Source: Candidatus Cloacimonadota bacterium
GTDB lineage: Bacteria > Muiribacteriota > UBA6191
Reading direction: 5' to 3'
Assembly (NCBI GenBank): GCA_023954715.1
Contig: JAGSHD010000001.1
Location: 428,468 to 492,467, forward strand
Length of the DNA stretch: 64,000 bases
Shown: positions 985 through 26,378 of the stretch, piece after piece
Numbering within the stretch: position 1 is the first letter of the stretch
How the letters are laid out: each line of letters starts with the position of its first letter
Made by a program: the position numbers and the translations under genes
Notes under the pieces: generated by a model
The model's database searches: none
The model's input: the letters and a program-made list of their open reading frames with translations, nothing else
Told to the model about the DNA's origin: nothing

Positions 985-2289
985 ATGAGCGAACTCTCTA
1001 CTTTACATAAAACTGTTGGAATCATCGCTAATGACGAAGACTTCGTCAACAAACTAAAACAAATATTTGCTACTCTTGACAATCAATCTTTTAACGCTAC
1101 TTACTGCGATAACTATCAGACAGCTAGTGAGTTTTTAGACTATGAGTTACCAAATATCTTAATTATTGATATTTCTTCTCCCATAGAAAACCTAGAACAA
1201 CTTCAAAAATCTTTGAAAGATGATCATTGGTTGGTTAACACCGGAGTGATTTTAGCAGCCCAAAGCAACGAAAGAGCCTCTTACATTGAAAAAGCTAGAG
1301 ACTGGAACCTCCTTTCCATCATAGATAAATCTAAATCTAAAGATTTTCAACGAGTCTTAGATTTTGTTCTAAGAAAATGGGATTTACTCAAAGACTCTAG
1401 TACATTTTCTCAATTTGAACAAAATCCAAATGGTACCATTATTATTAAAAATGACATGGAAGAAGCTGAGCGTACTGCTAATATGATCGCATCTTTTCTA
1501 TTTGAAACAGGTCGTATTGATCGTAAAAAGTTTTATAGTGTCAGCATGGGTTTATCAGAGTTACTTATAAATGCTGTTGAGCATGGTAATTGTGGTTTAA
1601 CCTTTGATTGTAAAACCCAACTTCTTGAAGATGATGTCAATATGGTAGACTATGTCCGTGAACTCGCTCAAAGCAATCCTGAAATTGGTAGAAAACGAGT
1701 ACAGCTCGACTACGAAATTCTCCATGATTGTTCGATCTGGAAGATAAGCGATGAAGGAGAAGGTTTTGATCACAGTGATTTTGTAGAACCAGATCCAGAG
1801 CGTTTGTTATTATCCCATGGCCGTGGGATTATCATGGCCCGAACTTGTAGCGATAAATTGGTCTATAACCCAAAGGGAAATGTAGCAACATTAACTTGTT
1901 ATCATAGTTCTGAAGAGCAAATCAATACGCCTGTTGGTTTCAGAGACGAAGAACACGTCAAAATTGACGTCGGTGGAAAAGTTTTTGATGAGGGTGAGTT
2001 CTCTTCTCACTTATTTTATATTCTAAGTGGTGAATTCGACGTTTTTAGTAACAATAAAAAATTAGGATCTTTAAAACCTAGTGATTTATTCGTAGGTGAA
2101 ATGAGTTTCTTACTTAATCAAAAACGTACAGCTACAGTTATAGCAACCTCTCCAGCTACTTTAATAAAATTGAGTAAACAATCTTTTATTAAAGTCGTAA
2201 AAAAATATCCTAATTATTTGATCTTGGTCTCTAGGCTGTTAGCTCAACGCTTGTCACGTTCAAATTCTGATACTGTTTACAAAATGTAA
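985..2289 (+). CDS. Three-domain signalling protein: receiver-like N-terminus, RsbW/SpoIIAB-like GHKL serine-kinase ATPase domain, C-terminal cyclic-nucleotide-binding (CAP-family) domain
   Basis: N-terminus: acidic pair NDED, then IIDIS and DKSK at receiver-like positions. Middle: LINAVEHGNCGL, an N-box of HATPase_c_2 anti-sigma kinases. C-terminus: FDEGEFSSHLFYILSGEFDV...GEMSFLLNQKRTATVIATSPATLIKL, a typical cNMP-binding beta-roll pattern. ATG at 985 with an AAAGGG SD-like sequence upstream. Confidence 0.6.
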   Translation: MSELSTLHKTVGIIANDEDFVNKLKQIFATLDNQSFNATYCDNYQTASEFLDYELPNILIIDISSPIENLEQLQKSLKDDHWLVNTGVILAAQSNERASYIEKARDWNLLSIIDKSKSKDFQRVLDFVLRKWDLLKDSSTFSQFEQNPNGTIIIKNDMEEAERTANMIASFLFETGRIDRKKFYSVSMGLSELLINAVEHGNCGLTFDCKTQLLEDDVNMVDYVRELAQSNPEIGRKRVQLDYEILHDCSIWKISDEGEGFDHSDFVEPDPERLLLSHGRGIIMARTCSDKLVYNPKGNVATLTCYHSSEEQINTPVGFRDEEHVKIDVGGKVFDEGEFSSHLFYILSGEFDVFSNNKKLGSLKPSDLFVGEMSFLLNQKRTATVIATSPATLIKLSKQSFIKVVKKYPNYLILVSRLLAQRLSRSNSDTVYKM

Positions 2290-2486: not shown

Positions 2487-5400
2487 TTATTTTATTTGAT
2501 ACTTATGCACCCTTTTACGCTCTTTTTCTAATACAAATAAATTAGACTTTCGCATAAGCACATCGATCGAACCAGATAGCTTTCTCATAGGATCACTAGA
2601 AGTTAATGAGTCATCTGTAGTGTTGATAAATTGTAACATAGGAAAACCAGCAGATGGATTTGTTGGGGCAGCAAAAATCTTTACCCCAGTACTATCGGCA
2701 ATAGCTATCTTATCATTACTACAATGCATATCTTTTACATTCGTCATGGTATGAACACTTGTCCCATCGAGATCATAAATTGGATAGCTCGAAAAGAAAA
2801 TATCATTTTGAATTTTTTTGGTACCTGCTGGGTAGGTAGCTACACTAAAACTATTGGCTGGAGAGTTTCCGGCTACTACTAAATAAGTACCCATATCACA
2901 AATACCTACACCACTAGTTTGTCCTGTATGAGTAGAACTCAAGTGAATCTCACTTTCAGAGAACATCTGTACACGATCTTCTGTACCCCCAGACTCTAGG
3001 ATCATCAATCTTTGTACCCCGCTATCTTGAACTAAATCAATTGCTTTTAACTTATAACCATTTTGACCAAAATTATCACGTGCTCCTAAAAAGGATCGTG
3101 GGTTTCTAGTAAAAGTCGTTTTTTGGCTTACTACCCGTTGATTTGGTACAACATTTGGCACATACTCTGGTAAGGTTGTACAAGCATCTGTCCAAGCTAC
3201 TGAAGGTACTACAGACGTACAGATAGCATTTTCGCCTTGAATCACACTAGTTAATATTGCTGTAAATCCAACACTCTGTAAATCATTAACAACGTATAAC
3301 TTATTATCTTGTTCTTCAATAAAGTATAAAGAACTACTGGTCGTTTTATAAGTCTCTAATGAATTAGTAAAGTAAGCCGAATTTAACAAATTAGTAGTAT
3401 TTTCGTTTACTCTTTCGTCTGAATAGATTAACTCTTGAATTTGGGTAGTATAACTTACTAATCCTAAAGATGCTGCAGATACTCTACTGTAAGCCGTATC
3501 AGAAGTATTATACACATCAAAGGTATCAAAGTTTGTATCAAGCATTAACCATTCATCATTTTTATATTCAGAAAGTAAGGCCGGCGCTTGTATCCCACCT
3601 AAACCATAAGGGTTGTCAGCAAAATAGTTTACAAATGTACCTGCGCTTGTAAATACAGATATACGTTTAGATACAGCGTCTGTGATATACAGATTACTAA
3701 AATTATTGCTATTAAGTGGACGAATTCCTCGAATACCATTTATAGACCTAAAGTTTTGGTCCTTATACCCAATTCCACCTATATATCCTACTCCCCCAAA
3801 GTCGGTAACGGCAGTCAATGTATCTGCTGAAGTAACTGAAAACTTATAAACTCTTAGGGTATTTTGATCGGAAATATAAACGGATTTACCGTCTTGATCT
3901 ACTTCTACTTGGCTTGGCTTTATCAATGGAAAAGTCCAACTTGTTAGTTTAGTAAACTTGGCTGAAGCTTCAAATGCAGAGTTAACGAAACGATAGCGTA
4001 CAATAGACTTTTCGTTTGGTAAAGTTAAATAGCTATACTCTACGGACTGACTGATACCTCCCGGTAATAATGAGTTTAATGTGTGAACTTGCGTAATTGC
4101 AATCGATGATACAGCAGAAGGAAAGTCTGCCGCTGTTCCGGTAGATTTTGCAAAGCCGCCTTCTGATGCTTGAACATAAACTTGATTGGTCAGTGGATCA
4201 ACATTTTTTGCAAAACTCTTTACATACCTTCTAAGATATAAATCTAAACCACTACTTGTTTGAGCAGCAACATATACAACAGATCCCAACTTTGGCGCAT
4301 ATCGTACTACAGCATTTGTTAAAAAATTATTGGCGCTTTCTGAAGCATCGTTTTCTCGGAAAATATGATTATCTGAGCCCTTTAGTACATTAGACTCTAA
4401 TACGAACTTACCAATCAACGCGGGACGATTAATTTGATTTTGTTCACTATTTTCTGTTTTTGGAAAATGTGCAATCTCTCCTTGAGTCGTAGTTAAAGTC
4501 CTACCAGAGTATTTACCTGACATTAAAAATGAACCTAGATTTTTAGTCCGATCATATACCATGTCAAATGAGTCTAATCTCTCAATTTGTCCGAAAAATA
4601 CGGAACTAGAGTTTTTGTTACCGACTATAGTAGTACGAGGATCTCCCCCTACTGAAAACTCTCTAACTTGAAGAGCTGACTTATCTGCAACAAATACAGT
4701 ATCTAAATTAGTGCCACCAAACCCCACTTGAATCGGTTCTTTAAACAAATCACCTCTGGTAATCGTTTTAGTAAATAATGGAAAAACATCTACGTTTGTT
4801 GTCAAAGTAGAAGCATTGCCATGAACATCGTTTGCTATAATATTAATTGTTAGCCCTTTTCCACTAGGTAAAGTCAACTCCGCTGAAAAACCAACGGATA
4901 CCAAAGGACTTAAAGTTGTAAACTTACTCCAAGGACTACTCGAAGTTTTTGTTGAAAAAGTTGTAGTACTGATAGCTGTACCATTAACAGAGATGGCTGT
5001 AACAGGTGACAACTCATCTTCTACAGTACCACTTACTTTATATTTTCCGCTTGTATTATCAGTAACCTGTGTAATTGCATCTACTTTAATAACAGGTGCT
5101 GTTTTATCTCGACGAAAATAAAGAGTACCATACTGTTTTAACGCCTTACTTGTATAGCCTCTCTCTTCAAATTTATCACTAGCATTATCTATTAAATCCA
5201 ATTTTAATGGCCATATTCCATCTTGATTTAATACAATCTCACCCTGAAAGGATACCCTAGAACTGACTCCTGCTGAACTCGTTGTCAAACGTACAAAATT
5301 TGTTTTAGTAGAGAAGGTGATATCTTTACCTAAAAGTTTGTTTATATCATCACTTTGAGGTGAAAATAGAGATAAATCTCCAAATCGAAAAGAAAAATTA

Positions 5401-8400
5401 TCAAATGTTCTCGTATCTGTACTAGTGCTTCCTCTAGATAGTTTAAATCCTGACTCATCCTCAATATATCCAGATATATGACCAATACAGCTACTAGTAG
5501 CGCAATTGGTATCAAAAACACTTGAGTTATAGGAGCTTCTTGTTTCGCTAATCAAGTATGGTAATGAAGTTAAATTAAAACCACTGGCCGATTGAATGAC
5601 TGCTCTTGGTTTTGTAATATCATTTAGGTTTAACTTTGTAAAAAAACTACTGTTTGTGAAACGTTTCACAAATCCATGTTGATCACTAATATAACCAGTC
5701 ACAAAATTTGATACACCCTCAGAAATCGGTAGTTTCACAGTCCAGTCCAAAAAGTTTGAAGTCACTATGGAGCAAGCTATCGTTGAACATAGACTCAATG
5801 TTGTTATCTTAGATAAGTCTGTTGCAGCCCCTTTAATTTCAACAATATTTGTTGTAACTAACTGCTCTAAAGAACCTTCGGGTAAGTTGGTGATAGCAAC
5901 TTCAGGGGGTGAAAAATCAACTGTAGCTATTTTAATATGTACAGCAGAAAGAGTTTTAAATTTTTGTGTTAAATCTGTAGTTCCACTATCATTGTTTTTG
6001 TCATCTGTTGCTGTGATTACTAAATCTATGTTATTGCCTTCACTGAGCCCTACTGTCTTCTCAAAGTTAAAGGTCTTTGTTTCAGTAAATACTTGATCAA
6101 CAGATATACCCGTCCTTACAAACTTTACATTATTTACATCACTTGCACTTGCAGATAAGGATATAGATTTGCTAGTTACAAAACCAAGCTGTACGCTGCT
6201 AGGGCTTTGATTTAAGTTAAAAGTATAATCACTATATAGTCCGTTTTGATTACTCACATTGCTAGAAAAATTTATAGGTTTTAAAGGATCACCACTTGTG
6301 AGAGTTGGCTGGGTGGCTACCCCTCTTACATTTAACTGAGATAATGTAATACTTGGCGGAATTACATCTAAGGACAAGAATTCTCGAACTATTGCAGTCT
6401 TATTGATGTTTCCTAACACATCTATAGCGTAAAACTCTAGTTTGTTTTTAATCCCCTGCTCTACAGGAACATCAATGATTTCAAAAGTGTTAAAGCTAAT
6501 CCCTGTATTTTTAGCATAAATACTAGTAATTGCTTGATCTTTCAAACTTACGTTCGAAACCCAAATACTCGTTACTCCAGATAAATCTACAGACTTTCCT
6601 AAAACCGTCAGTTTATTTAAGCCAAGAGCATTGCCATCATCTAACGGATAGGTGATATCAAGACTCGGAGATGTATTGTCCATCAAAGCAAAATAAGTTA
6701 CAATCTCATTTCCTACTATACTTGTGTTAGCAGATTCTGAAACCTTTACCGTGATACGAATATCTTCTTGATCTCCCAAACCAGTAGTATCTGCATCCAA
6801 AATTTCTTTATCCGTATGCCAATAAAATGTAGTAATTACTCCATTATTACTTGAAGATAAAGAAGGAATGATACCTGAACTTAAAAAAGTCGTATTAGCT
6901 GAAGATGAAAGGGATATTTTTGGGTCAGAAGGTAAAGTCAATAAGTTTTGCCCTAGGGTAAATGAAAACCGTAGATTGGCTGAATTTGACTCTTGATCAC
7001 TTATTTTCACACTTACTGGCACAATACCTTGAAGAGTACCATTCGATTGCGGAGTAAATGATACCATTGGTGCACTATTCAAAATTTGGATTTGGTCTAG
7101 CTGCCCTGAGCTTTGAGGCACTGCTTTTATATACTCTTCAGAAAGTGAAAAGTCGGGTAAAATTGTCTCACTTTCAAAGCCTAAAATATAATAGTCAAAA
7201 GCAGCAGTAACAATACTTGCAGAGCTAGTAGAACTTAACAAGTGATTTCTTAACTCTACTCCAAAAGAGTAAGTTTGATCTCCTACTAGTTGATCACTAA
7301 AAAATGAGTAGTAGCCTGAAGCATCTGTCTGCGCAAAGTGCCTAGCTCCATTACTATCTTCAGCGAAAACTGAGTAATAAGCAGCTGGAGTCTTACTTGC
7401 TCCCAACCCTTTAAAAATTCGCCCCTTTACATTTACTTTAACAGCATTCGTTTTTGGTATTTCATACTCTACTAAGCTACTAGTGGATAAAGTGGATAAC
7501 CCTTGTGCTATCGTATTGATAGCTGTATCTGTAGTGAAGTTCGATATTATAGATGAACTAGCTATCATACTTGACCATAAACTATCCATTTTGATTGGTT
7601 CAAAGTTCAATAGTTTTACGTTTTCTAATCTAGGTACTTTAGCCACAATTGGACTTGAAATATCTTTAAAGTATCCAATATCCTTGTCTAAAGAATAGCT
7701 CTGTTTAAACAAAAGAGGTATAAACTGTATCACTTCACGTAAGGAGATTTTAGAAGACATTGTCAATTGATTAGACATATTCTTTAATCTATATAATACC
7801 GCAAAATTACTTTCCAAAATCTCTATATCTGATTCAATCCAGTTATTATTTACTACACGTTGATTAGAAATATTTCTAAATATAAAGTTTTCACTCGCAA
7901 TTTCAGATAATGGATCTGGATAGCCATTGTTTAAATTGACAATGCTAAAGTTTGTCTTAGATAGACGTCCATATTCAGCTTGAAAGATCTTCTTAATTTG
8001 AGAAAAGTAATTTTGTGGTTCTTTTACTAACTTTTCAAACTCTACTAATGTAGTGTCAGTAAACTTCTTGCTTGACCAATAAGTCTTCATATCAGTGGCT
8101 AGCGTCGTTGTTTTTGAATATTGTGCTGACACCAATTGATCCTGTCCAAATAAAATTAGTCCTTCGGATGCTAGAGTTTTTTGAACTCTCTCTATTGAAT
8201 ATCTCTTTTGAGATAATACATTAGATACATTATCAATAACATTGTTTAAGCTAACAAAATACTGAGTATTCTTTTCACTTAAAGCCCCGATAGTTGACAC
8301 ACTCACCCACGGAAAACTATTTGCATCTCTAGAAATCCTTAAGGTTTTTTCTTTTGAAATCGTACCCGCATTTGCATAATTATTTAACTCCGTCAAATTT

Positions 8401-9476
8401 AAACGAAGTATATGATTGGGAGGTGGAAGTAAAGTTAAATCGCTAGTTGTTAAACTCACATCAAAGAATGCAATTAAATCATTACTGCTAATATAGCTTT
8501 TTATGGTCGGAGCATTGCCTTGATAAACTTTTTGCCAACGATCTTTAACAAAAAAGTTTCCAAGACCATCAGAAACATAATAACCAGCATTTAAAAATGT
8601 ATATAGCAACTGTAACTTTCGTCGTTTAAGTTGACTCCCTGAAGAAAGTGGTAAAGAGCTTTCCACAAAAACTTTTGATTTTAAATTATCTGATAAACTG
8701 AAAGATTCTTTCCAAGTTTTACTTGTTAATGCCAAGTTTTTTAACTCTCGTGAAAATGAAGATCCTGAACTCCCGTTAGTAGGTATCGAATCAACAATAT
8801 AGTTTGACTCCTGAAAGTCTGAGGCATTAAAAGTAAATTCGTTTTGAATTTTTATTGCGTTTTCAGACAAATCATCTAGAAGAAGATTCATCTCTTGGGT
8901 AATCTTAGAGTACGTTGGAGAACCTTGATCATTCACTCCACCAATCTTGGCTGATATTTCTTCTTTAACAAAGCGAAAAGCACTATCGGACAACAGGTTT
9001 ACTCCGATTTTATCACCGATAGAAGTTTGCCCTTGTTTCAATTGGGTAAAAGAAGTAAGTTCTTTGTTATCAAAAACCACTCGAACCAAAAGAGACTCTT
9101 TGGAGTTAGTAAATACGCCATCTCGAATCTGGTCGTCAGTAATAGAGAAGCTACCGTCAGAGTTTGTAATAATTACTGTTCCCGATTTTAAAATGCTATC
9201 TTGAAAGAAAATATCTGATGCTTTGTGTAAATAAACTCTACCTTTTCCAACTGGGTTACCAACTAAAGAGCTTGAAATGGATTTTGATATGCTGCTTATT
9301 TTAGATTTAGAAGGTAGAGTATTCGGAAAGTTTACTGTTCCTTGTAGAAAGATATTTGCTGGTGTACTCGTGGAAGATCCGGCTTCTTCGCTAAACCCCC
9401 CGCATCCAACCAAAGTAAGACACAAAAAGATACTTATAAATAGCTTTAATTGATTCCAATAATATTTGTTGTTCAT
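2487..9476 (-). CDS. Giant surface lipoprotein (2329 aa). Has a lipobox, a carboxypeptidase-regulatory-like N-terminal domain, Ser/Thr/Asn-rich probable Ig-like tandem domains and NHL/beta-propeller-like segments near the C-terminus
   Basis: ATG at 9476-9474. Signal peptide with LVGC lipobox (FLCLTLVGCGG). N-terminal GTVNFPNT...GRVYL...GTVIITNSDGSFSI resembles a CarbopepD_reg-like fold. C-terminal region carries NHL-like motifs (YISDQNTLRVYKF...YITDAVSKRISVF). Paralogous to the next gene. Confidence 0.7.
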   Translation of the reverse strand: MNNKYYWNQLKLFISIFLCLTLVGCGGFSEEAGSSTSTPANIFLQGTVNFPNTLPSKSKISSISKSISSSLVGNPVGKGRVYLHKASDIFFQDSILKSGTVIITNSDGSFSITDDQIRDGVFTNSKESLLVRVVFDNKELTSFTQLKQGQTSIGDKIGVNLLSDSAFRFVKEEISAKIGGVNDQGSPTYSKITQEMNLLLDDLSENAIKIQNEFTFNASDFQESNYIVDSIPTNGSSGSSFSRELKNLALTSKTWKESFSLSDNLKSKVFVESSLPLSSGSQLKRRKLQLLYTFLNAGYYVSDGLGNFFVKDRWQKVYQGNAPTIKSYISSNDLIAFFDVSLTTSDLTLLPPPNHILRLNLTELNNYANAGTISKEKTLRISRDANSFPWVSVSTIGALSEKNTQYFVSLNNVIDNVSNVLSQKRYSIERVQKTLASEGLILFGQDQLVSAQYSKTTTLATDMKTYWSSKKFTDTTLVEFEKLVKEPQNYFSQIKKIFQAEYGRLSKTNFSIVNLNNGYPDPLSEIASENFIFRNISNQRVVNNNWIESDIEILESNFAVLYRLKNMSNQLTMSSKISLREVIQFIPLLFKQSYSLDKDIGYFKDISSPIVAKVPRLENVKLLNFEPIKMDSLWSSMIASSSIISNFTTDTAINTIAQGLSTLSTSSLVEYEIPKTNAVKVNVKGRIFKGLGASKTPAAYYSVFAEDSNGARHFAQTDASGYYSFFSDQLVGDQTYSFGVELRNHLLSSTSSASIVTAAFDYYILGFESETILPDFSLSEEYIKAVPQSSGQLDQIQILNSAPMVSFTPQSNGTLQGIVPVSVKISDQESNSANLRFSFTLGQNLLTLPSDPKISLSSSANTTFLSSGIIPSLSSSNNGVITTFYWHTDKEILDADTTGLGDQEDIRITVKVSESANTSIVGNEIVTYFALMDNTSPSLDITYPLDDGNALGLNKLTVLGKSVDLSGVTSIWVSNVSLKDQAITSIYAKNTGISFNTFEIIDVPVEQGIKNKLEFYAIDVLGNINKTAIVREFLSLDVIPPSITLSQLNVRGVATQPTLTSGDPLKPINFSSNVSNQNGLYSDYTFNLNQSPSSVQLGFVTSKSISLSASASDVNNVKFVRTGISVDQVFTETKTFNFEKTVGLSEGNNIDLVITATDDKNNDSGTTDLTQKFKTLSAVHIKIATVDFSPPEVAITNLPEGSLEQLVTTNIVEIKGAATDLSKITTLSLCSTIACSIVTSNFLDWTVKLPISEGVSNFVTGYISDQHGFVKRFTNSSFFTKLNLNDITKPRAVIQSASGFNLTSLPYLISETRSSYNSSVFDTNCATSSCIGHISGYIEDESGFKLSRGSTSTDTRTFDNFSFRFGDLSLFSPQSDDINKLLGKDITFSTKTNFVRLTTSSAGVSSRVSFQGEIVLNQDGIWPLKLDLIDNASDKFEERGYTSKALKQYGTLYFRRDKTAPVIKVDAITQVTDNTSGKYKVSGTVEDELSPVTAISVNGTAISTTTFSTKTSSSPWSKFTTLSPLVSVGFSAELTLPSGKGLTINIIANDVHGNASTLTTNVDVFPLFTKTITRGDLFKEPIQVGFGGTNLDTVFVADKSALQVREFSVGGDPRTTIVGNKNSSSVFFGQIERLDSFDMVYDRTKNLGSFLMSGKYSGRTLTTTQGEIAHFPKTENSEQNQINRPALIGKFVLESNVLKGSDNHIFRENDASESANNFLTNAVVRYAPKLGSVVYVAAQTSSGLDLYLRRYVKSFAKNVDPLTNQVYVQASEGGFAKSTGTAADFPSAVSSIAITQVHTLNSLLPGGISQSVEYSYLTLPNEKSIVRYRFVNSAFEASAKFTKLTSWTFPLIKPSQVEVDQDGKSVYISDQNTLRVYKFSVTSADTLTAVTDFGGVGYIGGIGYKDQNFRSINGIRGIRPLNSNNFSNLYITDAVSKRISVFTSAGTFVNYFADNPYGLGGIQAPALLSEYKNDEWLMLDTNFDTFDVYNTSDTAYSRVSAASLGLVSYTTQIQELIYSDERVNENTTNLLNSAYFTNSLETYKTTSSSLYFIEEQDNKLYVVNDLQSVGFTAILTSVIQGENAICTSVVPSVAWTDACTTLPEYVPNVVPNQRVVSQKTTFTRNPRSFLGARDNFGQNGYKLKAIDLVQDSGVQRLMILESGGTEDRVQMFSESEIHLSSTHTGQTSGVGICDMGTYLVVAGNSPANSFSVATYPAGTKKIQNDIFFSSYPIYDLDGTSVHTMTNVKDMHCSNDKIAIADSTGVKIFAAPTNPSAGFPMLQFINTTDDSLTSSDPMRKLSGSIDVLMRKSNLFVLEKERKRVHKYQIK

Positions 9477-9720
9477 AATGATTTAGTTTTGATCAAATTT
9501 ATCCACTCATTTGTATAGGTCAACTCACAAGGATAAATTTAAGAGTTTCATTTCATCTATCCAAAATACTATAATTGAGTATACACATTTCTTAGTATTA
9601 TCGTATTTTTGTCTGTAAGAATTTACCGAATTTAAGAGGATAAGACGGTACTCTATTAATATTTGTAGCGAAAACGAGTAAAAAGTTGTCTAAAATCATC
9701 AATAATTTAAACTATTCTGT

Positions 9721-12700
9721 TTAACGAAGACGATATTTTATAAGAGAGTTTAGACCATCTACAACAAATAAATAGTCATCATTTATAGCAAGTTGCTTCG
9801 GTTGACTTAAACTCTTAACTTTACCTAAATCTTGGTAATAATCAAGATTAGCCTTTTGTGTGATTTGGACTGTATTATCTAAGTTTACAACAATAGAAAA
9901 TATCTTTATAACCTCTTCATCTATTATAGCCACTTGATCTTTGTTACAAGACATAGCTTTTGGATTCGTAAATCCAATGCTATTCCCAGCGAAATCAATA
10001 ATACTTTCTGAACTCACAAAACCTAATCGATTCAAGGATGGATTGGAGCGACTTAAATAAACTTCTAGTTTGTTTTTTGGGTCGGACCCAATACTAATTA
10101 TACCTTTATCAAATCGACAAAAGTCCACTGCTTCGCTTTGTAAATTTAAATTAGCATGAGTATCTGGAATTGCAGAACCATCGAGCTTTCTATACTGTAA
10201 TCTTGACTTTGCTCCATTTACATTTTCTAGCGTTAATAAATGGTTATCAATATCATAAGCGACATTCATATCAACTGCTTTATCAAAAGCGAGCTCTAGT
10301 CCTGTACTCGTCGTAAGAAAAGTATAAGTTCTACTAGTTTGAAATTCTAGAGTCCTTAATCCATTAGTGAGTATTGATCTAAAATAACTATCTGAAGTCT
10401 CTCTCATAGAATATAAACTTTTTTTACTTGGAACTAATACGTGAACTTCTCTTGTAGATGCCTTTAGTTTTTCAAATGAGTTGGTAAAATATAGAGGATT
10501 ATCTTTATTTGTTACTGCCTGAGTAAAGTTTTGTTCTTGCCACTTAGTAAATCCTACATGAGACTCTGTTTGTAAAAGCCCCTGTCCCAAACTCTCTAAA
10601 TTTATCCTATAATCACTTTGTAGGTTTTTTGTATAAAAGTCGATTGCTGCTAATTGCTGATCCACAACAAATAGCTCATCGTTCGGTGTAAAGTCCATAT
10701 CTACAATATTTTGTTGAGCTCCAATATTGTTTGGATTTTGCAAATAGTGAGATATAAAAACTCCATTGCTAGTAAACGATGATATCCTTGAAGATTGCTC
10801 ATCTACTACCCATATTTCTTCTATTCCTTGATGACTTGTTCTTTGTAAAGCTCGTATTGAAGAAATTGTTATAAATTGACCATCTCTCAATCCATGACCA
10901 CCAAAACTAGTAAGTAATGTTAGAGCATCAGTAGACTCCCTGCGATATTTATGAATCTTCAATTTGTCATCAGCTACATATAAAATATCTCCATTAATAG
11001 ATACCTCAAATGCTACAGGAGAGTATGTAAAGGTCAGTGCAGTTAATGCCTGAAAACTCTGACTAGTTTTACTATCAAAATGTTGTCGCAAGATTTTTTT
11101 ATTGTTGCTATCTAACAAGTGTACTACTTCGCTCCCAATATCCAGATTATTTGGGTTTGAAGAGTTCACCACATAGCTTTGTGTGACCCTTATAGATGAT
11201 ATAGTCGATGGAAGTTGAAAATCTAATAGTCCTAACAGACCAGTAGACGATGGCTTGCCTCCTTGCGAAGATGGCAAGTTTATTCCTGTTTGTACTCCAT
11301 TTACATATCGAAACAATTGACTACTTGAATTTGAAGATGTTGCACTATAGGCATAAGTCACACTAGATAAAAATGGACTATATTCAAAGATAGTTGCTGT
11401 ACTTAAGTTTGTAAAAGAACCTGATACCACAGCTACATCTCTATATAGCTGATGAGACTGATTGTCTTTTCCTTCTCCTTCTGAGATATAAGATAAAAAA
11501 GTACTCGATTGATTATTTAAGTCCTTTTTTAAGTGAATTGTTCGATTTACATCAGAGTTGATGCCTTCAAAATGTCCGTTCAATAATACTGTTTGAGTCG
11601 TATTTGCTGGATTCATGCTAGTAAAACTAGCAAAATTATGAAGTTTCTTTAGTGTTGAATAGTCACTATTTGTAGTCCCAGTAACACCCAAAATACTTTG
11701 AAAACCTACACCGATCAATGACAAGCTTGGGTTCGATTTTTGAGAGATTAGTACAGATGATAAACCTACCCCTGTAAAGTCCATATCACTTGGAGAAGTA
11801 AAAACGTTTTTGTATGTAGATTTCAATGAATCAAAAATAGGAAATATATTAAAAACTAAAGACGAAGTACTTATATTTCCAAAGCTATCACTAGCAGTTA
11901 AAAATACAGTATTTGCACCTGAAACAGCTGTTAAGACCTTTTCAAATACGATAGATGAGTTTGTAGGAAGAGTTACTATATTGTTCCAGGTACTCAATGA
12001 TGTACTTGTTATAAAACTACTAGCCTCTCCATTAATATTTAAATTAGTGATAGCACTTAATTCATCACCTACTTTACCTCTAATCTTGAACTTCCCACCA
12101 ACAGTTAAACTATTAGTATCTAGCTGAAACTCTGATATAACCGGACCTGTTACATCCTTTTTGAAATAGAGAATTGCATTACTTTTCAAGGGAGCTTTCG
12201 TATAACCTTGATATTTACCAGTATAATTATCTTCTAAGTATAGTCTTACTGGCCAAATTCCATCTTTTACGATGGATGCTGTCTGATGAAACAAGGCACT
12301 TTGGCTAAGATGATTATTTATTGTCACTCTAGAGAAGTGAGTCACACTATTTGTGCTACTTAATGGAGGATTAATTAACTCTGAGTAACTTTCTGGAATC
12401 GTCAAACGAAACGAATCAAATAGACCCAGACCATTACTAGATAAGTTAAAACCAGATCGATCTTCTATAAACCCTTTGACATTTACCGGACACAATAGGT
12501 CTTTACAATTAGTGAGCTCATAAATTGGAGGGGAAAGCTCTTGTCCTGTTGTGATAATAATAGACGAGGATACACCGTTAACAGAGGTCACAACTAAACT
12601 AGGTTTAGTAACGTCATCTAATTCATAGACAAATGGAGACAATTTACTAATATTTCCAAAAATATCAGAAGCCGAAATATTTACTGTATTGCTTAATCCT

Positions 12701-15700
12701 TCAGTAAACTGTAGACCGGTCAACTCCCAAGATAGTTGGGTACTTGTTGAGCTTATACTTACACACTGAGACCCAATGCATGCTGATACGCTTGCTATGG
12801 GAGAAGTATCAACTGATAAGCCTTGAATAGATTGAGTAGTAGAGTAGATTGTAGTTAAACTTGAAATAGAAGGCGATGACACAAAAATTGAGGGTCCTTG
12901 AAAGTCTAAAGTTCTAATCTTTAATGACAATTGGGATTGCAAAGACGAGCTATCAAAAGCGCTAATATCTAAAAGATAGTTTTGTTGTTCATTTAAAAAG
13001 CTTACTCTTTCACTCACATTAATGTTGTTACTTTGGGGAGGAAAGATCTTCTTTGTACCAATTTGATAAAACGAAATATTATTTTCGTCTGTAATATTTA
13101 AAGTGTATTGTAAAGAAGATGTAGTTACAGCATCTAGCTCTAAATAAACTGAGCTAACATCGTTTTCAAATCTAGTCCAGCTCTGTGCCAAACTATATTG
13201 CACACTGTTTCCCAAGATAGTTGGAGTTACCGGTATTTCAATTGTAAGCTTGTTGGCTCCATCTACAGAGTATGTTTTAAACACTTTTAACTTAGATTTA
13301 TATTGAGATTTAAATAGTGAGATTTCTTTAAACCAGATCTTTGGAGGCGTAGCATCTAATGAGTTCACCACATGGGTTAGATTTTGAGCATGTTTGTTAG
13401 ATAAAAAATCCATAGTCTCAATCTCAAAAACATTTGCGATACCAGACTCTAACTCAAAATTTTGAAAATGCCAGATATCTCTGTTTTGTAAATCTTGTAT
13501 TCCATTAACTGTTACTCTATTTGAACTTGGTTTACTTAGATTTACCAAATTAGCATAGGCCACTCCACTTTTATCTTTAATTTCTACGTCTACCGAGCTA
13601 ACAATAGTGTTGGACAGAATGGAGCTTGTTGTTGGATAAATAAAACGAACACTAGGTACTTTAAAATCTAAAACCTGAAATTTATTAACAATAGACGAGC
13701 CCACTCTTAAATCTTGAGACTCTTGTAGAGCCATAGATAAAATTATAGAGTTGACCGTGGACAGGTCTGATATTTTAGAGGATAAATCATTATATATATC
13801 CCAGTATATACTCACTGTTGAGGAGTTTCTGGTGGACGATAATGATATAGTATTTTGGGTATTTGTAGTAGTAGGTAAAAGCTTCAAAGATTTTGCTCTA
13901 TAAAGGTTTCCATCATGAGTATAATTCATTAAAAAATTTAAATCCGCTGTTTCAAAATCACTATAAGCAATGGACAACTCTAAAAGAGACTTACTAATTT
14001 GCTTGGTAGTATTGAGTGCTAAAAATGGAGACTGATTGCTCTTTTGAATCTGAGTTAAGACAATTGTTTCTCCAGTACTAGAGTTCACCTGATTCAATAA
14101 AAAATAATCATGTAAAGCTTTTCGTTTCTCCCATCCATGTAAAAAGATCTCTTCTTGAATTGTCATAATTTGTGATTGACTATTTGATAGTGAGTTTAGC
14201 TCAATAGCCAACATCAAGTCTTTTGGAGCTTGTATTGATTGAAAAGAATACTCTCCAAAGCCATTACTATAGGTAGATTGAATCAACTTTTGCTGGCTAT
14301 CAAACAATAGCAGTTTAAAGTTTTCAAGTGGAGTCGCACTTTGATCAGAAGCCAATAGCCTTCCTGCCACTATCGTTGACTCGGTAAAGTTATCGATAAA
14401 ACTTGTTTTATCTAATGTTTGTCTTAAACTTGAGAGTTTTGTTTCCCATAATGAAAAGCCGGTGTCTATATTTAATTGAACATTAATATTACTATCATTT
14501 AATATGGACTGATAATAGCTAACGTAGCTATCTAATTTTTTTGATAGATGTGTAATATTTAAATAATTTGGAATTACATTAGGACCTAGTATCGTAAACA
14601 ATGTTTGAGTACTATCTGAAGGAAAAACCATAAAACCTTCTAATAAAGACTCATAAAAAAAATCCATTACTGAGAGGTTTGTTGTATTCGACAAACTCTG
14701 TCCTTGAATGCTCTTATCTCTATTCCATTCATAGTATTTTTGTAAATATTGAGCCTTTCTAGATATAGCAAGACTAGTATATTGAAGTGACCCAGAAAAG
14801 TTTCTATACATTGTATTTTGTATAGATAATTTAGACTGTGGAGCACTAAAAGAGTCTAGGTGTAGCTTTGGACTAAATCCGTTTTTTATAGCTTTTTTAT
14901 GTTTTGCCTCTAGCGTTTCTAAAAAGTAACCTAAATAGATATTATCTTGTGACAAAAATTCAAAAAATGTATTTAAACCAAAGTTTAAAGCAGATCGAGT
15001 AGATAACCTCTTTTGTAAGCTTGCACTAACACCCTTAGTAAATCCAACACTTTTGATTGCTTGATATGGAAAAAAGTAGTCTAAAGAACCAGATGCATTA
15101 CTTACAAATTCACCATCAGCTAAATGTACTTCATGATTGATACTACTTTTTTGATATAAGCTAGTAACATTCAAAAAGTTTGACCCGGATACTTTTGCAA
15201 GTTCAGATAAAATTTGTAAATTAATCCATGGGAACCTACGAGCATCTTTCACTATAGCATCTATGATTAATTTATGATTTGGGCTTATACTTGCTATTGT
15301 ATCGAGTTCACTCGTAGATAAGCTAATAATTTTATTGGGTGCTTTTAAAATAGATTTTTCACTATCAGGAAGAGTTTGATTGATACTAGATAAAATTTCA
15401 TCTAAGTTTAAATAAGCTTTATATGGAATGGTGTTTCCATTATCTAGTTTTGACCATCGATCTGCTACCAAGACTCTTTGATTTGGTAGCAGTATAAAGT
15501 AACCTAAATCTAATAAGGATAAAACAAGTTGAGCCTGCTTTCTTACAGGAGAAGTATTGTTTTGTACTATCAGTTTGTTTTCTACTCTCGATTTTACTTC
15601 AACAAAACCCTTTACAATACTATCACTAGTATCTAGCTTTTCTGATTGTTCTAACCATTGTTTTCCTCTTCCGGCAAAGCGTTGATCCCTTGTGATCAAG

Positions 15701-16350
15701 AAGTCACTAGCTTTCACATTGTTAAAAACTAAGGAGTCAGCGTACTTTAACTGTAGTGCTAAGACTTCATCTAACATAGGATTGATTTCAGCTTTTATTG
15801 AGGCTACCGTGCTTTGATTAGAGCCTCCACCAATTCTATTGAAAATCTCTTCTTTAACAAAACGATAGGCACCATCAGAGTTAACATCCACATTTATTTT
15901 TGGGACTGACACTAAAAAAGAGTTGGGATCATATAGTGAAAACATTTCTTTATCATCAAAGGTAAAACGTAAAACCAAAGTACCTAGATTTTTTGGATTT
16001 GCTGTTTCAAAATCTTCTTCGTTTAATATAAATTGTCCTTGTGAGTTTGTAATCACATTAGCCGATGATTTTAACAAGTCATTAGAAAACTCAAAGTCAT
16101 CTGCTTTATAAACGCTTAATTTGGCGGAAACTACTCGATTGCTAGAAGAACTTTTAGATATTGATTTTAAAATAGACTTTGAGATCGATGAAGAAACAGT
16201 AGTAGGAAAAGTTAAAGTACCACTTACAAATAACTTACTAGCTATGACCGAACTACTAGAGTCATCTACTTTTGCGCCACAACCAATTAATAGCAATGAC
16301 AGCGCAAAAGCGCACAAACACAAATATGTTTTAATCTTTTTTTTGTCCAT
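9721..16350 (-). CDS. Giant surface lipoprotein (about 2209 aa), paralog of the preceding gene. Start moved to the internal ATG at 16350
   Basis: MDKKKIKTYLCLCAFALSLLLIGCG signal peptide with LIGC lipobox begins at the ATG at 16350; the track start at 16416 adds a non-signal extension. Shares an N-terminal SISKSI(L)KS motif and an RFVKEEI...IGG block with the 2329-aa protein. NHL-like repeats (DILYVADDKLKIHKY..., IWVVDEQSSRISSF) in the N-terminal third. Confidence 0.7.
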   Translation of the reverse strand: MDKKKIKTYLCLCAFALSLLLIGCGAKVDDSSSSVIASKLFVSGTLTFPTTVSSSISKSILKSISKSSSSNRVVSAKLSVYKADDFEFSNDLLKSSANVITNSQGQFILNEEDFETANPKNLGTLVLRFTFDDKEMFSLYDPNSFLVSVPKINVDVNSDGAYRFVKEEIFNRIGGGSNQSTVASIKAEINPMLDEVLALQLKYADSLVFNNVKASDFLITRDQRFAGRGKQWLEQSEKLDTSDSIVKGFVEVKSRVENKLIVQNNTSPVRKQAQLVLSLLDLGYFILLPNQRVLVADRWSKLDNGNTIPYKAYLNLDEILSSINQTLPDSEKSILKAPNKIISLSTSELDTIASISPNHKLIIDAIVKDARRFPWINLQILSELAKVSGSNFLNVTSLYQKSSINHEVHLADGEFVSNASGSLDYFFPYQAIKSVGFTKGVSASLQKRLSTRSALNFGLNTFFEFLSQDNIYLGYFLETLEAKHKKAIKNGFSPKLHLDSFSAPQSKLSIQNTMYRNFSGSLQYTSLAISRKAQYLQKYYEWNRDKSIQGQSLSNTTNLSVMDFFYESLLEGFMVFPSDSTQTLFTILGPNVIPNYLNITHLSKKLDSYVSYYQSILNDSNINVQLNIDTGFSLWETKLSSLRQTLDKTSFIDNFTESTIVAGRLLASDQSATPLENFKLLLFDSQQKLIQSTYSNGFGEYSFQSIQAPKDLMLAIELNSLSNSQSQIMTIQEEIFLHGWEKRKALHDYFLLNQVNSSTGETIVLTQIQKSNQSPFLALNTTKQISKSLLELSIAYSDFETADLNFLMNYTHDGNLYRAKSLKLLPTTTNTQNTISLSSTRNSSTVSIYWDIYNDLSSKISDLSTVNSIILSMALQESQDLRVGSSIVNKFQVLDFKVPSVRFIYPTTSSILSNTIVSSVDVEIKDKSGVAYANLVNLSKPSSNRVTVNGIQDLQNRDIWHFQNFELESGIANVFEIETMDFLSNKHAQNLTHVVNSLDATPPKIWFKEISLFKSQYKSKLKVFKTYSVDGANKLTIEIPVTPTILGNSVQYSLAQSWTRFENDVSSVYLELDAVTTSSLQYTLNITDENNISFYQIGTKKIFPPQSNNINVSERVSFLNEQQNYLLDISAFDSSSLQSQLSLKIRTLDFQGPSIFVSSPSISSLTTIYSTTQSIQGLSVDTSPIASVSACIGSQCVSISSTSTQLSWELTGLQFTEGLSNTVNISASDIFGNISKLSPFVYELDDVTKPSLVVTSVNGVSSSIIITTGQELSPPIYELTNCKDLLCPVNVKGFIEDRSGFNLSSNGLGLFDSFRLTIPESYSELINPPLSSTNSVTHFSRVTINNHLSQSALFHQTASIVKDGIWPVRLYLEDNYTGKYQGYTKAPLKSNAILYFKKDVTGPVISEFQLDTNSLTVGGKFKIRGKVGDELSAITNLNINGEASSFITSTSLSTWNNIVTLPTNSSIVFEKVLTAVSGANTVFLTASDSFGNISTSSLVFNIFPIFDSLKSTYKNVFTSPSDMDFTGVGLSSVLISQKSNPSLSLIGVGFQSILGVTGTTNSDYSTLKKLHNFASFTSMNPANTTQTVLLNGHFEGINSDVNRTIHLKKDLNNQSSTFLSYISEGEGKDNQSHQLYRDVAVVSGSFTNLSTATIFEYSPFLSSVTYAYSATSSNSSSQLFRYVNGVQTGINLPSSQGGKPSSTGLLGLLDFQLPSTISSIRVTQSYVVNSSNPNNLDIGSEVVHLLDSNNKKILRQHFDSKTSQSFQALTALTFTYSPVAFEVSINGDILYVADDKLKIHKYRRESTDALTLLTSFGGHGLRDGQFITISSIRALQRTSHQGIEEIWVVDEQSSRISSFTSNGVFISHYLQNPNNIGAQQNIVDMDFTPNDELFVVDQQLAAIDFYTKNLQSDYRINLESLGQGLLQTESHVGFTKWQEQNFTQAVTNKDNPLYFTNSFEKLKASTREVHVLVPSKKSLYSMRETSDSYFRSILTNGLRTLEFQTSRTYTFLTTSTGLELAFDKAVDMNVAYDIDNHLLTLENVNGAKSRLQYRKLDGSAIPDTHANLNLQSEAVDFCRFDKGIISIGSDPKNKLEVYLSRSNPSLNRLGFVSSESIIDFAGNSIGFTNPKAMSCNKDQVAIIDEEVIKIFSIVVNLDNTVQITQKANLDYYQDLGKVKSLSQPKQLAINDDYLFVVDGLNSLIKYRLR

Positions 16351-16609
16351 TAATTTTTTTGTAAAGCCCTCAAGATTAGTAATACAGCGCAATATAAAGT
16401 TATGAATCGGAAGCAATTTTCTTTCTTTGTGACCGTTTCTAGCTAAAATTTAGAAATTGAATCATTAAAAAAAAGTAACAAAAGCTCTGATATACTATCG
16501 ACCTATTTACTAAAAAACTGTGGATTTAGTGTACAAAAGTCTAGCGAAATACTAACTTTTTGTGTATATTTGCTATCTTCAAAAAACCAACTGAAACCCA
16601 TTATTGATA

Positions 16610-16789
16610 ATGAACGCAAAAAGAATCTCTTGTATAAAGTGTAAATACTACAAAGTTACCTGGGAGCCAGATCGACCTCACTCATGTACTTTGTTTGCTT
16701 TTAAAAGTAAAGCAATCCCTATGCACGTTGTAAGGCAAACTGACGGCAACCAATGTCAGGGCTACAAAAAAAAATAACCTGTTTACAAA
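16610..16789 (+). CDS. Candidate 59-aa Cys-rich basic small protein (CxxC...C...C). Not in the ORF track and has no SD, so doubtful
   Basis: ATG at 16610 follows an in-frame TAA. Translation: MNAKRISCIKCKYYKVTWEPDRPHSCTLFAFKSKAIPMHVVRQTDGNQCQGYKKK. It coincides exactly with a locally GC-rich island in an AT-rich spacer. It converges on the stop of the minus-strand gene. Confidence 0.2.
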
Positions 16790-18054
16790 ACATCCATAAA
16801 AGCAGAAACGCTAAACACTGCATTTCCTGGGCCTGTTGGTCCATATCCTTTAGGGTTTGGCAGATCATGTTTGTGAAATGTCTCACGAAACACTCTTAAG
16901 AGTTTCATAAAGTACTCTAATTTTGGTGCTTCTTGTGGCCCTAACTTTGCATAAGGCTCGGGACACCAACTTGTAAATCGAGGCATTATTTTTTTACTCA
17001 TAAAAAACTCTAGACCTTCTTTAGTAGACGCAATTGCTTGATCCACATCAGTGTAACCATAGTTTTTATTCATTTCTACGCCACCAACAAAGTTAGGAAT
17101 CACATTTTCAGGACCAAATATTTCGGCCGAATCAACAATCCGCTTCATCCATTCTTCTCTTCCTATCCAACGAGTTTTACCTGGACAGATTTGTGGCCAT
17201 AAATCCTTATCCCATACTTCAAAGTTTGGGTGGTAGATGCTAACACCACTATCTTTAAGAATCTGACATTCACTTTTTTCATAAGCTTGAACTACGGCTT
17301 TAATCAACCATCGATCTCCAAAGCGGTCATGTATTGCTTTAGCATAAGGAGCATAAAACTCAACTTCTGTTTTATTTTGTAGTCCTGTAATGATAGAGCC
17401 ACCTGTTAGAGTAATCGCTTTGGAGATTGTATCTTCTTCTGCGATTAACTCTAGCGCTTCAAGGATTTCATCTAAAGATTTGACACCAGTATAGTCTCTA
17501 CCAGACTCTCTTTGCTGTTTGTAGTTTTTATTTAAATCACAAAATTGACACTGCTCTTCTTTGTTAAAATACTGACACATACGGTATACCGTTAGATAAA
17601 CCAAGTATCCCCACTCTAAAACAGGAGCGATTTCAGATATTTTTTTTCCGTTGGATAATTTTTTATGATAAAAAACAGGAACTGGATGATATTCAACATC
17701 TGCTAAATACTCGTCATTCAAAGAAATGATCAATCTACCTTCCAACAAATCTACTTTATATGGAGATTTTGGATTTAGTCTAACTGAGATTACAGTCTTT
17801 TTAAGATCAAAGATACCACCAGATATCTTAATCTCTTCGGGAGCATTTAAGTTTTCTTCTTTTTTCATATCTTTGATTGGAACCAAATCAAATGAAAAAA
17901 TAAAATAGTCTTTCGGTTTATATCCTTTTGCTATTTTAAGTGAATCTAAAGAAAAATCTAATCCATCTCTTAAGATATCTTGTTTTACTACTGCTTCTTT
18001 TGGTAAGTCTTTAAACTCGATGATATGATCTTCGAGATATTTCAAATTGGCCAT
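16783..18054 (-). CDS. Radical-SAM-like enzyme with an atypical Cys cluster (Cx9Cx2C) and a GGS motif about 40 residues downstream
   Basis: ATG at 18054. CQYFNKEEQCQFC is followed by ITLTGGSIIT at the spacing where canonical radical SAM proteins carry GGE. No other family recognised by eye. Sits 10 nt upstream of a SAM methyltransferase on the same strand. Confidence 0.4.
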   Translation of the reverse strand: MANLKYLEDHIIEFKDLPKEAVVKQDILRDGLDFSLDSLKIAKGYKPKDYFIFSFDLVPIKDMKKEENLNAPEEIKISGGIFDLKKTVISVRLNPKSPYKVDLLEGRLIISLNDEYLADVEYHPVPVFYHKKLSNGKKISEIAPVLEWGYLVYLTVYRMCQYFNKEEQCQFCDLNKNYKQQRESGRDYTGVKSLDEILEALELIAEEDTISKAITLTGGSIITGLQNKTEVEFYAPYAKAIHDRFGDRWLIKAVVQAYEKSECQILKDSGVSIYHPNFEVWDKDLWPQICPGKTRWIGREEWMKRIVDSAEIFGPENVIPNFVGGVEMNKNYGYTDVDQAIASTKEGLEFFMSKKIMPRFTSWCPEPYAKLGPQEAPKLEYFMKLLRVFRETFHKHDLPNPKGYGPTGPGNAVFSVSAFMDVL

Positions 18055-25375: not shown

Positions 25376-26377
25376 TTACAAAATACCTTGTTTTTCTTCG
25401 AGGCTTAATAATAGATTTAATATTTCTTCTTTAGATAAGTAGGTAGAATGCTCAGAGTCATAAATACTCTTATCAATTGATTCATCTTTGTTTACGGTGT
25501 GTCCTACAATCAACATTTCAGTCTCTTCTTTGCAGTAAGGCAACTCATGTGCAAATAAAAGCTCTTCATGTAGTTTTTCGCCCTCACGTGTGCCCACAAT
25601 ATTTAAATCAACCGTTTTTAATCCTTTTAAAGAAGCATACTCTCCACGAATTACTTCAACAAGATCTAATACACGAATACATGGCATCTTAAGAATGAAT
25701 GTTTCTCCATATTTAGCTAATTGCCCTGCTTGTAAAACTAATGATACTGCTTTTTGTAAAGTCATCACAAAACGAGTCATATCAGCATGAGTCAAAGTAA
25801 TGGATTTACCCTCTCTTAATTGAGATAAAAACAAGGGAATCACTGAGCCGCGAGTACCTAAAACATTACCAAATCGAACACAAGAAAAGATTGTTTTTCG
25901 AGGCCCCTTGTAGCGATTTGCTGTACCCATCAGTTTTTCAGCCAGTAATTTAGTAGTACCCATAGTATTAATTGGGTTAACAACTTTATCAGTGGAGACT
26001 AAAATTACTTTTTTAACGCCTTTTTCCATGGCAACTTCAATGATATTTTGAGTCCCAATTACATTTGTTTTAACAGCTTCAAATGGATTAAACTCACAAG
26101 ACGGAACTTGCTTTAAAGCAGCTGCATTAAATACATAGTCTACGTTTTCCATTGCTAGTGACAATCGTGACTTATCTCGAATATCTCCCATCAAAAAACG
26201 AACTTTAGAGGTATCGTCTAACTCCTGATGAAAACAATATTGTTTGTATTCATCTCTAGACAAGACTCGAATAGAAGCAGGTTCATATTTCAAGACCTCT
26301 TGAACTAAAGCACGCCCGATAGAGCCGGTACCACCCGTGACCAATATTGTTTTACCTTTGAGATAATCTAAGCCCAT
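25376..26377 (-). CDS. pseB: UDP-N-acetylglucosamine 4,6-dehydratase (PseB/CapD/FlaA1 family)
   Basis: KTILVTGGTGSIGRAL Rossmann motif, 333-aa length, YxxxK region. Position in a nucleotide-sugar operon. Confidence 0.75.
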   Translation of the reverse strand: MGLDYLKGKTILVTGGTGSIGRALVQEVLKYEPASIRVLSRDEYKQYCFHQELDDTSKVRFLMGDIRDKSRLSLAMENVDYVFNAAALKQVPSCEFNPFEAVKTNVIGTQNIIEVAMEKGVKKVILVSTDKVVNPINTMGTTKLLAEKLMGTANRYKGPRKTIFSCVRFGNVLGTRGSVIPLFLSQLREGKSITLTHADMTRFVMTLQKAVSLVLQAGQLAKYGETFILKMPCIRVLDLVEVIRGEYASLKGLKTVDLNIVGTREGEKLHEELLFAHELPYCKEETEMLIVGHTVNKDESIDKSIYDSEHSTYLSKEEILNLLLSLEEKQGIL

Positions 26378-26378
26378 T

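Follow-up and report, generated by a model that had tools for sequence, protein, structure and literature searches.

Giant tandem lipoproteins with Ig-like repeats and NHL-type blades: candidate envelope adhesins or receptors in an uncultured bacterial lineage

Where in the cell do two adjacent, very large lipoproteins of an uncultured bacterium reside, and what might they do there? The genes in question, here called A and B, lie side by side on the minus strand of a 64,000-nucleotide stretch of DNA (the window; GenBank assembly GCA_023954715.1, contig JAGSHD010000001.1, positions 428,468 to 492,467 of the forward strand). The window is part of a 600-kb contig of a metagenome-assembled genome (MAG) labelled Candidatus Cloacimonetes/Cloacimonadota at NCBI. 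The predicted proteins, of 2329 and 2209 amino acids (245-255 kDa), are encoded by genes that rank among the largest of an uncultured marine lineage. Each begins with a lipobox, continues through an N-terminal module peculiar to the family and an array of immunoglobulin (Ig)-like β-sandwiches, and ends in a β-propeller region that includes divergent NHL-type blades. The reading tentatively preferred here, to which we would give slightly less than an even chance, is that A and B are envelope-anchored adhesins or receptors, most likely on the exterior of the outer membrane, in which the Ig-like array would form a stalk and the propellers a head.

Two intact, full-length paralogues

Gene A is identical to a database entry (MCO4781020.1, KC646_01750) annotated "hypothetical protein"; gene B is MCO4781021.1 (KC646_01755). 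The frame of B is open across 9721..16416, and its start was placed at the ATG at 16350 because the orthologue in the closest relative, the MAG NORP72 from the North Pond subseafloor aquifer, aligns from exactly that methionine. The two proteins are collinear over their full length: 26% identity and 45% positives over about 2316 columns (BLASTP, E 1e-139). A first-pass annotation, made from the letters of this DNA, had already described the genes as tandem paralogues. The similarity indeed runs end to end, far above chance and well past the first 150 residues, and both genes are intact, 244 bp apart.

Identity between A and B is unevenly spread. It is lowest in a mostly helical domain near the N-terminus (9-18% over A 401-700), and highest (34-39%) in the first β-sandwich, parts of the Ig-like array, and the propellers. 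Both proteins are acidic (isoelectric point 5.5-5.9), rich in Ser, Thr and Asn, and poor in Cys; three Cys pairs are conserved in the family. These pairs, together with the composition, fit placement outside the cytoplasm. GC content is about 34% across the region, and no compositional break occurs at either gene.

Family resemblances lie below curated thresholds throughout. Scans of A, B and eight relatives against Pfam and NCBIfam returned no model at threshold, in line with the first-pass remark that no family name could be assigned by eye.

A lipobox in every intact member

Both proteins open with a signal peptide that, read by eye, has a basic n-region, a hydrophobic h-region and a lipobox: MNNKYYWNQLKLFISIFLCLTLVG-C25 in A, where L-V-G-C25 precedes GGFSEE, and MDKKKIKTYLCLCAFALSLLLIG-C24 in B, where L-I-G-C24 precedes GAKVDD. 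Both fit the signal peptidase II pattern ([LVI][ASTVI][GAS]C after n- and h-regions), and the lipoboxes first noticed by eye are kept by every family member with an intact N-terminus. Residues Gly24, Cys25 and Gly26 (A numbering) are almost invariant; the NORP72 orthologue of B reads ITGCGAKVEE here.

The residues that follow the cysteine are conserved as well: A-type proteins read GGFSEE and B-type proteins GAKV(D/E)2. In Bacteroidota, a lipoprotein export signal (LES) consists of K-(D/E)2, S-D-D or more generally S-(D/E)n at positions +2 to +5 or +6 after the lipidated Cys, and in Capnocytophaga positions +3 to +5 are optimal (PMC5080379). The sequences C-G-G-F-S-E-E and C-G-A-K-V-D-D share the LES residue types, with a polar residue or Lys and two acidic residues soon after the lipobox Cys, but the motif stands at +5 to +7, 2-3 positions off the reported optimum (PMC5080379). 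The resemblance is thus a hint, with a positional shift and in an organism of another (candidate) phylum than the Bacteroidota.

An N-terminal module, a repeat array and a propeller region

AlphaFold2 (AF2) models were made of A 27-790 and A 1130-2329 from alignments of only 4 sequences. Their mean confidence (predicted local distance difference test, pLDDT) was 39.2 and 43.1, respectively, and the models were therefore used for secondary structure only.

The N-terminal module of A comprises three domains. The first, a β-sandwich with an SISK-type Ser/Lys loop, appears as β-strands in the AF2 model (pLDDT ~50-60) and is 37-38% identical to its counterpart in B. The second, of about 500 residues, is mostly helical in the low-confidence model and begins with a conserved SD.A.RF.KEEI..KIGG block. 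The third is a divergent CarboxypepD_reg-like (transthyretin-like) β-sandwich at A 679-766, with the corresponding signal in B at ~655-735. In B the module aligns to A 27-790, and its match to the family profile is full-length (P0004, 1059.6 bits). Both shared motifs of the first-pass annotation, an SISKSI-type loop and an RFVKEEI...IGG block, are present in A and in B.

The same annotation had called the N-terminal sandwich CarbopepD_reg-like. That assignment is not established: its likeness to the A 679-766 domain is marginal (hhalign E 0.0024, probability 12%), and the only CarboxypepD_reg signal sits in the third domain. Even there the Pfam model PF13620 scores weakly, with E 0.21 (12.4 bits) on A, E 0.057 (14.2 bits) on B, and E 1e-4 at best among family members, all short of the gathering threshold of 32.3 bits. 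The reverse search is more telling. Positions ~640-720 of the family profile match about 30 unrelated proteins, the best at E 3.5e-21. Three of them were scanned: all carry CarboxypepD_reg repeats with OmpA, and two carry PD40 as well. This reverse profile search supports CarboxypepD_reg homology for the third domain.

For the helical domain, no likeness outside the family was found. It matches family members only in an exhaustive HMMER search of 1.84 billion representatives, has no relative in Pfam, NCBIfam or PDB profile searches, and contains no internal repeat. Several charged or polar residues in it are nevertheless near-invariant: D164, R168, E172, E173, E429, S524 and N619. A Foldseek search of the PDB with the N-terminal AF2 model found nothing below E 0.06.

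Next comes a region of about 780 residues that the first-pass annotation had taken for a probable Ig-like array. Its repetitive, all-β character is borne out: A 780-1570 compared with itself gives off-diagonal hhalign matches (E 2.4e-12) at shifts of about 134, 238 and 491 residues, which implies about six units of 125-135 residues each. The AF2 model is all-β here and scores best at residues 1211-1274 and 1459-1564. Two CxxxxC pairs, C1230/C1235 and C1325/C1330, are invariant in 10 of 10 aligned members, and the collinear array of B has the same conserved pairs. Bacterial Ig-like models give only sub-significant matches on the family (Big_6, E 0.69; Big_7, E 0.017, in three of ten members; Big_15, E 0.17), and no Big_2 domain was detected in the Pfam scans of A, B and relatives.

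The C-terminal ~765 residues of A are predicted as all-β four-strand units, with pLDDT ~60-70 only locally, and probably hold more than one propeller. A weak self-similarity of blade size (46 residues) is present. Within this region, at A ~1833-1990, the family profile matches solved NHL propellers in the PDB: Thin (6d69, E 6.9e-10), the designed protein Pizza (3wwa, E 2.6e-9) and, more weakly, the NHL domains of TRIM3, TRIM71 and TRIM2. A BLASTP match from the family to P0005, an NHL/SBBP protein, points the same way, and the NHL/β-propeller stretches recognized at first pass are supported. The Pfam NHL model (PF01436) has no match at E <= 1 on any family member; the segment is treated here as divergent NHL-type blades, of which three to four are recognizable within the propeller region. 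Foldseek matches of the C-terminal model to the PDB were generic multi-propeller proteins at a template modelling (TM) score of ~0.1, and, like the result for the N-terminal model, carried no weight in the classification.

The propeller region is also the part best conserved between orthologues. A and its NORP72 orthologue are 70-76% identical over the last 330 residues, which fits a constrained functional head; the propeller region of B is 54% identical to a fragment of its own orthologue. Both proteins end in a conserved strand (...RVHKYQIK and ...LIKYRLR).

A rare family and a probable lineage-specific duplication

Public data contain very few members of the family. With A as query, word-indexed searches of 5.8 billion proteins retrieved only A itself, a 64% identical orthologue (P0002) and a 33% identical relative (P0003); with B as query they retrieved only B. 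One unrelated NHL protein also appeared in these searches. The exhaustive HMMER search used the N-terminal module (A 27-790) against the 1.84 billion cluster representatives and gave 44 matches. P0002, P0003 and P0004 are the profile's own rows (A's cluster, P0003 and B). New matches upstream of the CarboxypepD_reg-like domain were P0006 to P0012, P0014, P0017 and P0026; only P0006, P0007, P0009 and P0010 cover the family-specific part in full, and the rest are fragments. All remaining matches are confined to the CarboxypepD_reg segment. The first ~640 residues are therefore family-specific and the family very rare, with about 10-13 entries, several of them fragments, among the representatives searched.

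The closest relative, NORP72, has been described as an outlier possibly outside Cloacimonadota (bioRxiv 10.1101/2021.10.08.463351), and has been assigned to the candidate phylum UBP17 of the Genome Taxonomy Database (PMC9426571). NORP72 carries the tandem pair too, separated by 142 bp: A' (2330 residues) is 64% identical to A, and B' (2185 residues, lipobox ITGC) 54-55% identical to B. Neither copy there is disrupted by a frameshift, a disruption that the first-pass annotation had proposed looking for in relatives. It follows that neither copy is decaying and, with both intact in two genomes, that both are maintained.

More distant relatives have one copy. A single giant gene occupies the same syntenic slot in loci L003 (P0006) and L005 (P0007), where the order is glycogen synthase, methyltransferase, variant radical SAM, giant gene, a convergent HATPase_c_2/cNMP-binding gene, GH77, CvpA and topoisomerase I. 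P0003 is likewise single-copy, with the same convergent HATPase_c_2/cNMP neighbour; P0009 and P0010 lie in other genomic contexts. Orthologues from syntenic loci are 33-43% identical.

A neighbour-joining tree was built from 2060 columns free of gaps; in it the A and B clades join each other, and the branch that leads to B is roughly double that of A (1.0 versus 0.45). Support for this placement is moderate, from bootstrap counts that are imperfectly normalized; in the main alternative, B is attracted to the long P0009 branch. Taken together, synteny and tree speak for a duplication in tandem in the ancestor that the window organism shares with NORP72, after which B evolved at an accelerated pace. 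The first-pass annotation had judged the duplication old from the divergence of the two proteins. It is indeed older than the divergence of the window organism from NORP72, as the A/A' and B/B' pairs attest; its depth beyond that point is called into question by the single copies of P0003, P0006 and P0007 and by the branch of B, the length of which implies that low A-B identity partly reflects fast evolution of B and not age alone.

A distant member at locus L006 (5377-12224; GCA_964503595.1, CAZDAM010000053.1) is split into P0010, of 1521 residues, and a 761-residue open reading frame (ORF). The break interrupts the last of the Ig-like units and is therefore a frameshift, due to sequencing or assembly error or to gene decay, rather than a genuine division into two genes.

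A stalk and a head, or something else?

The domain order suggests a simple working model. Once exported by the Sec pathway and lipidated at Cys25 (A) or Cys24 (B), each protein would be tethered to a membrane by its N-terminus. The β-sandwich, helical domain and CarboxypepD_reg-like domain would then lie close to the membrane; the approximately six Ig-like units would form a long stalk; and the NHL-type propellers would present a distal binding head to an external ligand, perhaps a polymer, a particle or another cell. NHL domains in solved examples are binding modules. The tandem copy B, presumably born in the ancestor shared with NORP72 and diverging fastest in its helical domain, may have acquired a second specificity or become a partner subunit. 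That the proteins are exposed at the surface, have a stalk and a head, and bind a ligand is in each case predicted from this architecture.

Several points weigh against the model. The binding role is read from domain architecture, and the Pfam and NCBIfam scans detected no recognized adhesin, lectin or carbohydrate-binding module domain. At the pLDDT values of the AF2 models, the geometry is not established. The helical domain could carry the real activity. Finally, because the acidic motif after the lipobox Cys lies 2-3 residues farther out than the critical position in Capnocytophaga, and the host is not a member of the Bacteroidota, A and B could face the periplasm.

The last point bears on an unlikely alternative: that A and B are lipoproteins turned towards the periplasm, where they would serve as structural elements or scaffolds of the envelope, for example by spacing or tethering the outer membrane. 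A lipobox by itself does not dictate surface exposure, and the post-Cys motif is displaced from the experimentally defined LES position (PMC5080379). Moreover, combinations of propellers with CarboxypepD_reg occur in periplasmic OmpA- and PD40-linked proteins, and the only non-family matches of the N-terminal profile were, where scanned, of this type. Size tells against it, however: judging from domain sizes, a stalk of some six Ig-like units followed by a propeller region of over 750 residues would far exceed the width of a typical periplasm. The rapid divergence among syntenic orthologues is also more typical of exposed proteins.

Size and composition could instead point to a surface (S)-layer-like coat with A and B as its two subunits, structural proteins that would be abundant, possibly glycosylated and tiling the cell surface. 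Tandem-encoded S-layer pairs exist, TfsA and TfsB of Tannerella being an example, and here too are two very large, acidic, Ser/Thr/Asn-rich, Cys-poor proteins encoded in tandem. A cluster for nonulosonic-acid-type sugars and a LytR_cpsA_psr gene lie 7-14 kb away, and an archaeal S-layer protein (1l0q, β-propeller plus PKD) appears among the Foldseek matches. That match, however, has a TM-score of ~0.1 on a poor model. A lattice of two components is not a trait of the family as a whole, since three relatives have one copy only, in two cases at the same locus. No SLH or other S-layer anchoring or lattice domain was found in full-length A and B by the Pfam and NCBIfam scans, nor a C-terminal sorting domain (CTD) of the type IX secretion system (T9SS), and neither the O-glycosylation motif of the Bacteroidota, D[ST][AILVMT], nor N-x-S/T is enriched over shuffled sequences (z -1.4 to 0.5, with one value of 2.2). 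We regard such a coat as improbable.

Might the helical domain be the heart of the matter? Its presence in only about 10-13 of the 1.84 billion representative proteins searched, and its standing as the part most diverged after duplication, raise the idea that it is a new fold with the proteins' real activity, whether ligand-recognizing, enzymatic or membrane-active. The chance seems small. Were it so, A and B would be more than another Ig/propeller adhesin: they would make up an envelope system that defines the lineage, an uncultured candidate phylum.

Slimmer still are the prospects of a related proposal, in which A and B are envelope-anchored enzymes acting on an extracellular polymer; catalysis would reside in the helical domain or in a propeller of NHL type (as in lactonases, SGL and PAL-like enzymes), and the Ig-like array would be a spacer only. 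The near-invariant charged and polar residues of the helical domain speak for it, and one family member weakly matches the Lactonase 7-bladed propeller model (E 0.072); yet Pfam, NCBIfam and PDB profile searches returned no enzyme family, the helical domain is the least conserved region between the paralogues, and the best PDB matches are non-catalytic NHL domains. As for the first-pass suggestion of prey adhesins, neither the NCBI label nor the papers on NORP72 give any sign of predation.

Comparison with known systems

A and B assemble familiar modules in an unfamiliar way. Their ~1833-1990 segment (A numbering) and the matching part of B align to the blades of NHL propellers (PF01436; TRIM-NHL proteins, Thin, the PknD sensor and Pizza), including the motif D..S.RIS.F...G.F, but the Pfam model scores on no member and the surrounding architecture is unrelated. 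Likewise, the A 679-766 domain retrieves CarboxypepD_reg-repeat proteins, but occurs in A and B as a single copy, and not as a repeat array, and is sub-threshold in every member.

The LigA and LigB proteins of Leptospira are surface lipoprotein adhesins that combine a lipobox with a bacterial Ig-like array, with or without a C-terminal domain. A and B share with them the predicted N-terminal lipid anchor, the long Ig-like array and a distinct C-terminal region, but add a ~640-residue N-terminal module and a propeller head, gave no Big_2 match in the Pfam scans, and have no sequence relationship to them. SprB and RemA of the Bacteroidota are giant adhesins exported by the T9SS. A and B are also very large, repetitive, β-rich envelope proteins, from an organism that NCBI files under Cloacimonadota; unlike SprB and RemA, they have a predicted N-terminal lipid anchor in place of a T9SS sorting domain.

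The modules themselves (NHL propeller, transthyretin-like domain, Ig-like sandwich) are thus known, although all fall below curated thresholds; what is new is a lineage-restricted family of giant envelope lipoproteins with a unique N-terminal module of ~640 residues, invisible to Pfam and NCBIfam. If surface-exposed, A and B would be candidates for attaching cells to particles or surfaces. Copy number offers a natural experiment: some relatives have a single copy, others a pair in which one gene evolves faster. Giant uncharacterized Ig/propeller envelope proteins are common in MAGs, so that A and B are more a catalogue entry than a surprise.

Table 1. Features of the A/B locus and its immediate flanks (positions in the window; residues in each protein)
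Feature	Residues	Position	Strand	Basis
Gene A, giant lipoprotein	1-2329	2487..9476	minus	ORF, ATG start, translation
A signal peptide and lipobox	1-25	9402..9476	minus	by eye
A N-terminal β-sandwich, SISK-type loop	~40-160	8997..9359	minus	AF2 strands
A family-specific, mostly helical domain	~163-671	7464..8990	minus	low-confidence AF2, HMMER
A CarboxypepD_reg-like β-sandwich, divergent	~679-766	7179..7442	minus	weak Pfam, reverse profile
A Ig-like β-sandwich array, ~6 units	~790-1565	4782..7109	minus	hhalign self-comparison
A β-propeller region	~1566-2329	2490..4781	minus	AF2 four-strand units
A NHL repeats within propeller region	~1833-1990	3507..3980	minus	family profile against PDB
B-A spacer, 244 bp		9477..9720	minus	between paralogues
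Gene B, paralogue	1-2209	9721..16350	minus	ORF, translation, full-length alignment to A
B signal peptide and lipobox	1-24	16279..16350	minus	by eye; NORP72 alignment
B N-terminal module (SISK β-sandwich, helical, CarboxypepD_reg-like)	26-759	14074..16275	minus	alignment to A 27-790
B Ig-like array	~760-1500	11851..14073	minus	collinear with A array, same conserved Cys pairs
B β-propeller region	~1501-2209	9724..11850	minus	collinear with A propeller region
HATPase_c_2 (RsbW-type, PF13581) plus cNMP-binding (PF00027) protein, convergent with A	434	985..2289	plus	Pfam
Variant radical SAM protein, directly upstream of the giant genes	423	16783-18054	minus	NCBIfam NF045502, E 6e-57

Spacer and expression

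The spacer between B and A was described at first pass as free of a terminator, and no terminator-like hairpin was found on its minus strand. Nor does it have a stable or unusual RNA fold (z = 0.55), and an Rfam scan of the window gave no match. A σ70-like match at 9523-9496, just upstream of A, agrees at 9 of 12 positions, a frequency at chance level relative to shuffled sequence. A block of ~100 nucleotides is partly conserved in the shorter NORP72 spacer. Co-expression of B and A from one transcript, judged probable at first pass, is possible, but a spacer of this length with a partly conserved block could also hold a promoter for A.

Neighbouring genes and other observations

Directly downstream of the A-type gene, and convergent with it, stands a gene for a 434-436-residue protein with PF13581 and PF00027 domains. 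The arrangement recurs in five loci (the window, NORP72, P0003, P0006 and P0007); the protein in the window has a weak receiver-like N-terminus. On the other side, the variant radical SAM gene is preceded by a methyltransferase and a glycogen synthase gene. A 433-438-residue gene holds its position in L003 and L005, and the L003 protein is visibly similar to the radical SAM protein of the window. Because the wider region is equally syntenic, no specific claim is made for a functional link between A or B and the radical SAM, methyltransferase or HATPase_c_2/cNMP neighbours.

A conserved small ORF of ~57-62 codons, with a CxxC...C...C pattern (MIMNAKRISCIKCKYYKVTWEPDRPHSCTLFAFKSKAIPMHVVRQTDGNQCQGYKKK), separates the variant radical SAM gene from the giant gene and is read from the other strand. 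It was seen as a conserved DNA block in three lineages: at 16604-16777 (plus) in the window, at 2971-3234 (minus) in locus L002, and at 5988-6176 (minus) in L003. It has no Pfam match.

Farther away, the sugar-nucleotide cluster mentioned above occupies 25376-30920 and 23371-24798, both on the minus strand. It encodes Polysacc_synt_2, GFO_IDH_MocA, ATP-grasp, radical SAM/SPASM and cytidylyltransferase proteins, adjoins the LytR_cpsA_psr gene, and looks like a pathway for nonulosonic acid of the pseudaminic or legionaminic type. The gene at 50550-54848 (minus) specifies a 1432-residue protein made almost entirely of HEAT/PBS-lyase-type repeats behind an N-terminal zinc ribbon. At 31247-32698 (plus), a 483-residue protein combines a Major Vault Protein repeat (Vault_4, E 7e-11) with SPFH/Band_7 and MVP_shoulder domains; to our knowledge, such a vault-like/SPFH combination is unusual in a bacterium.

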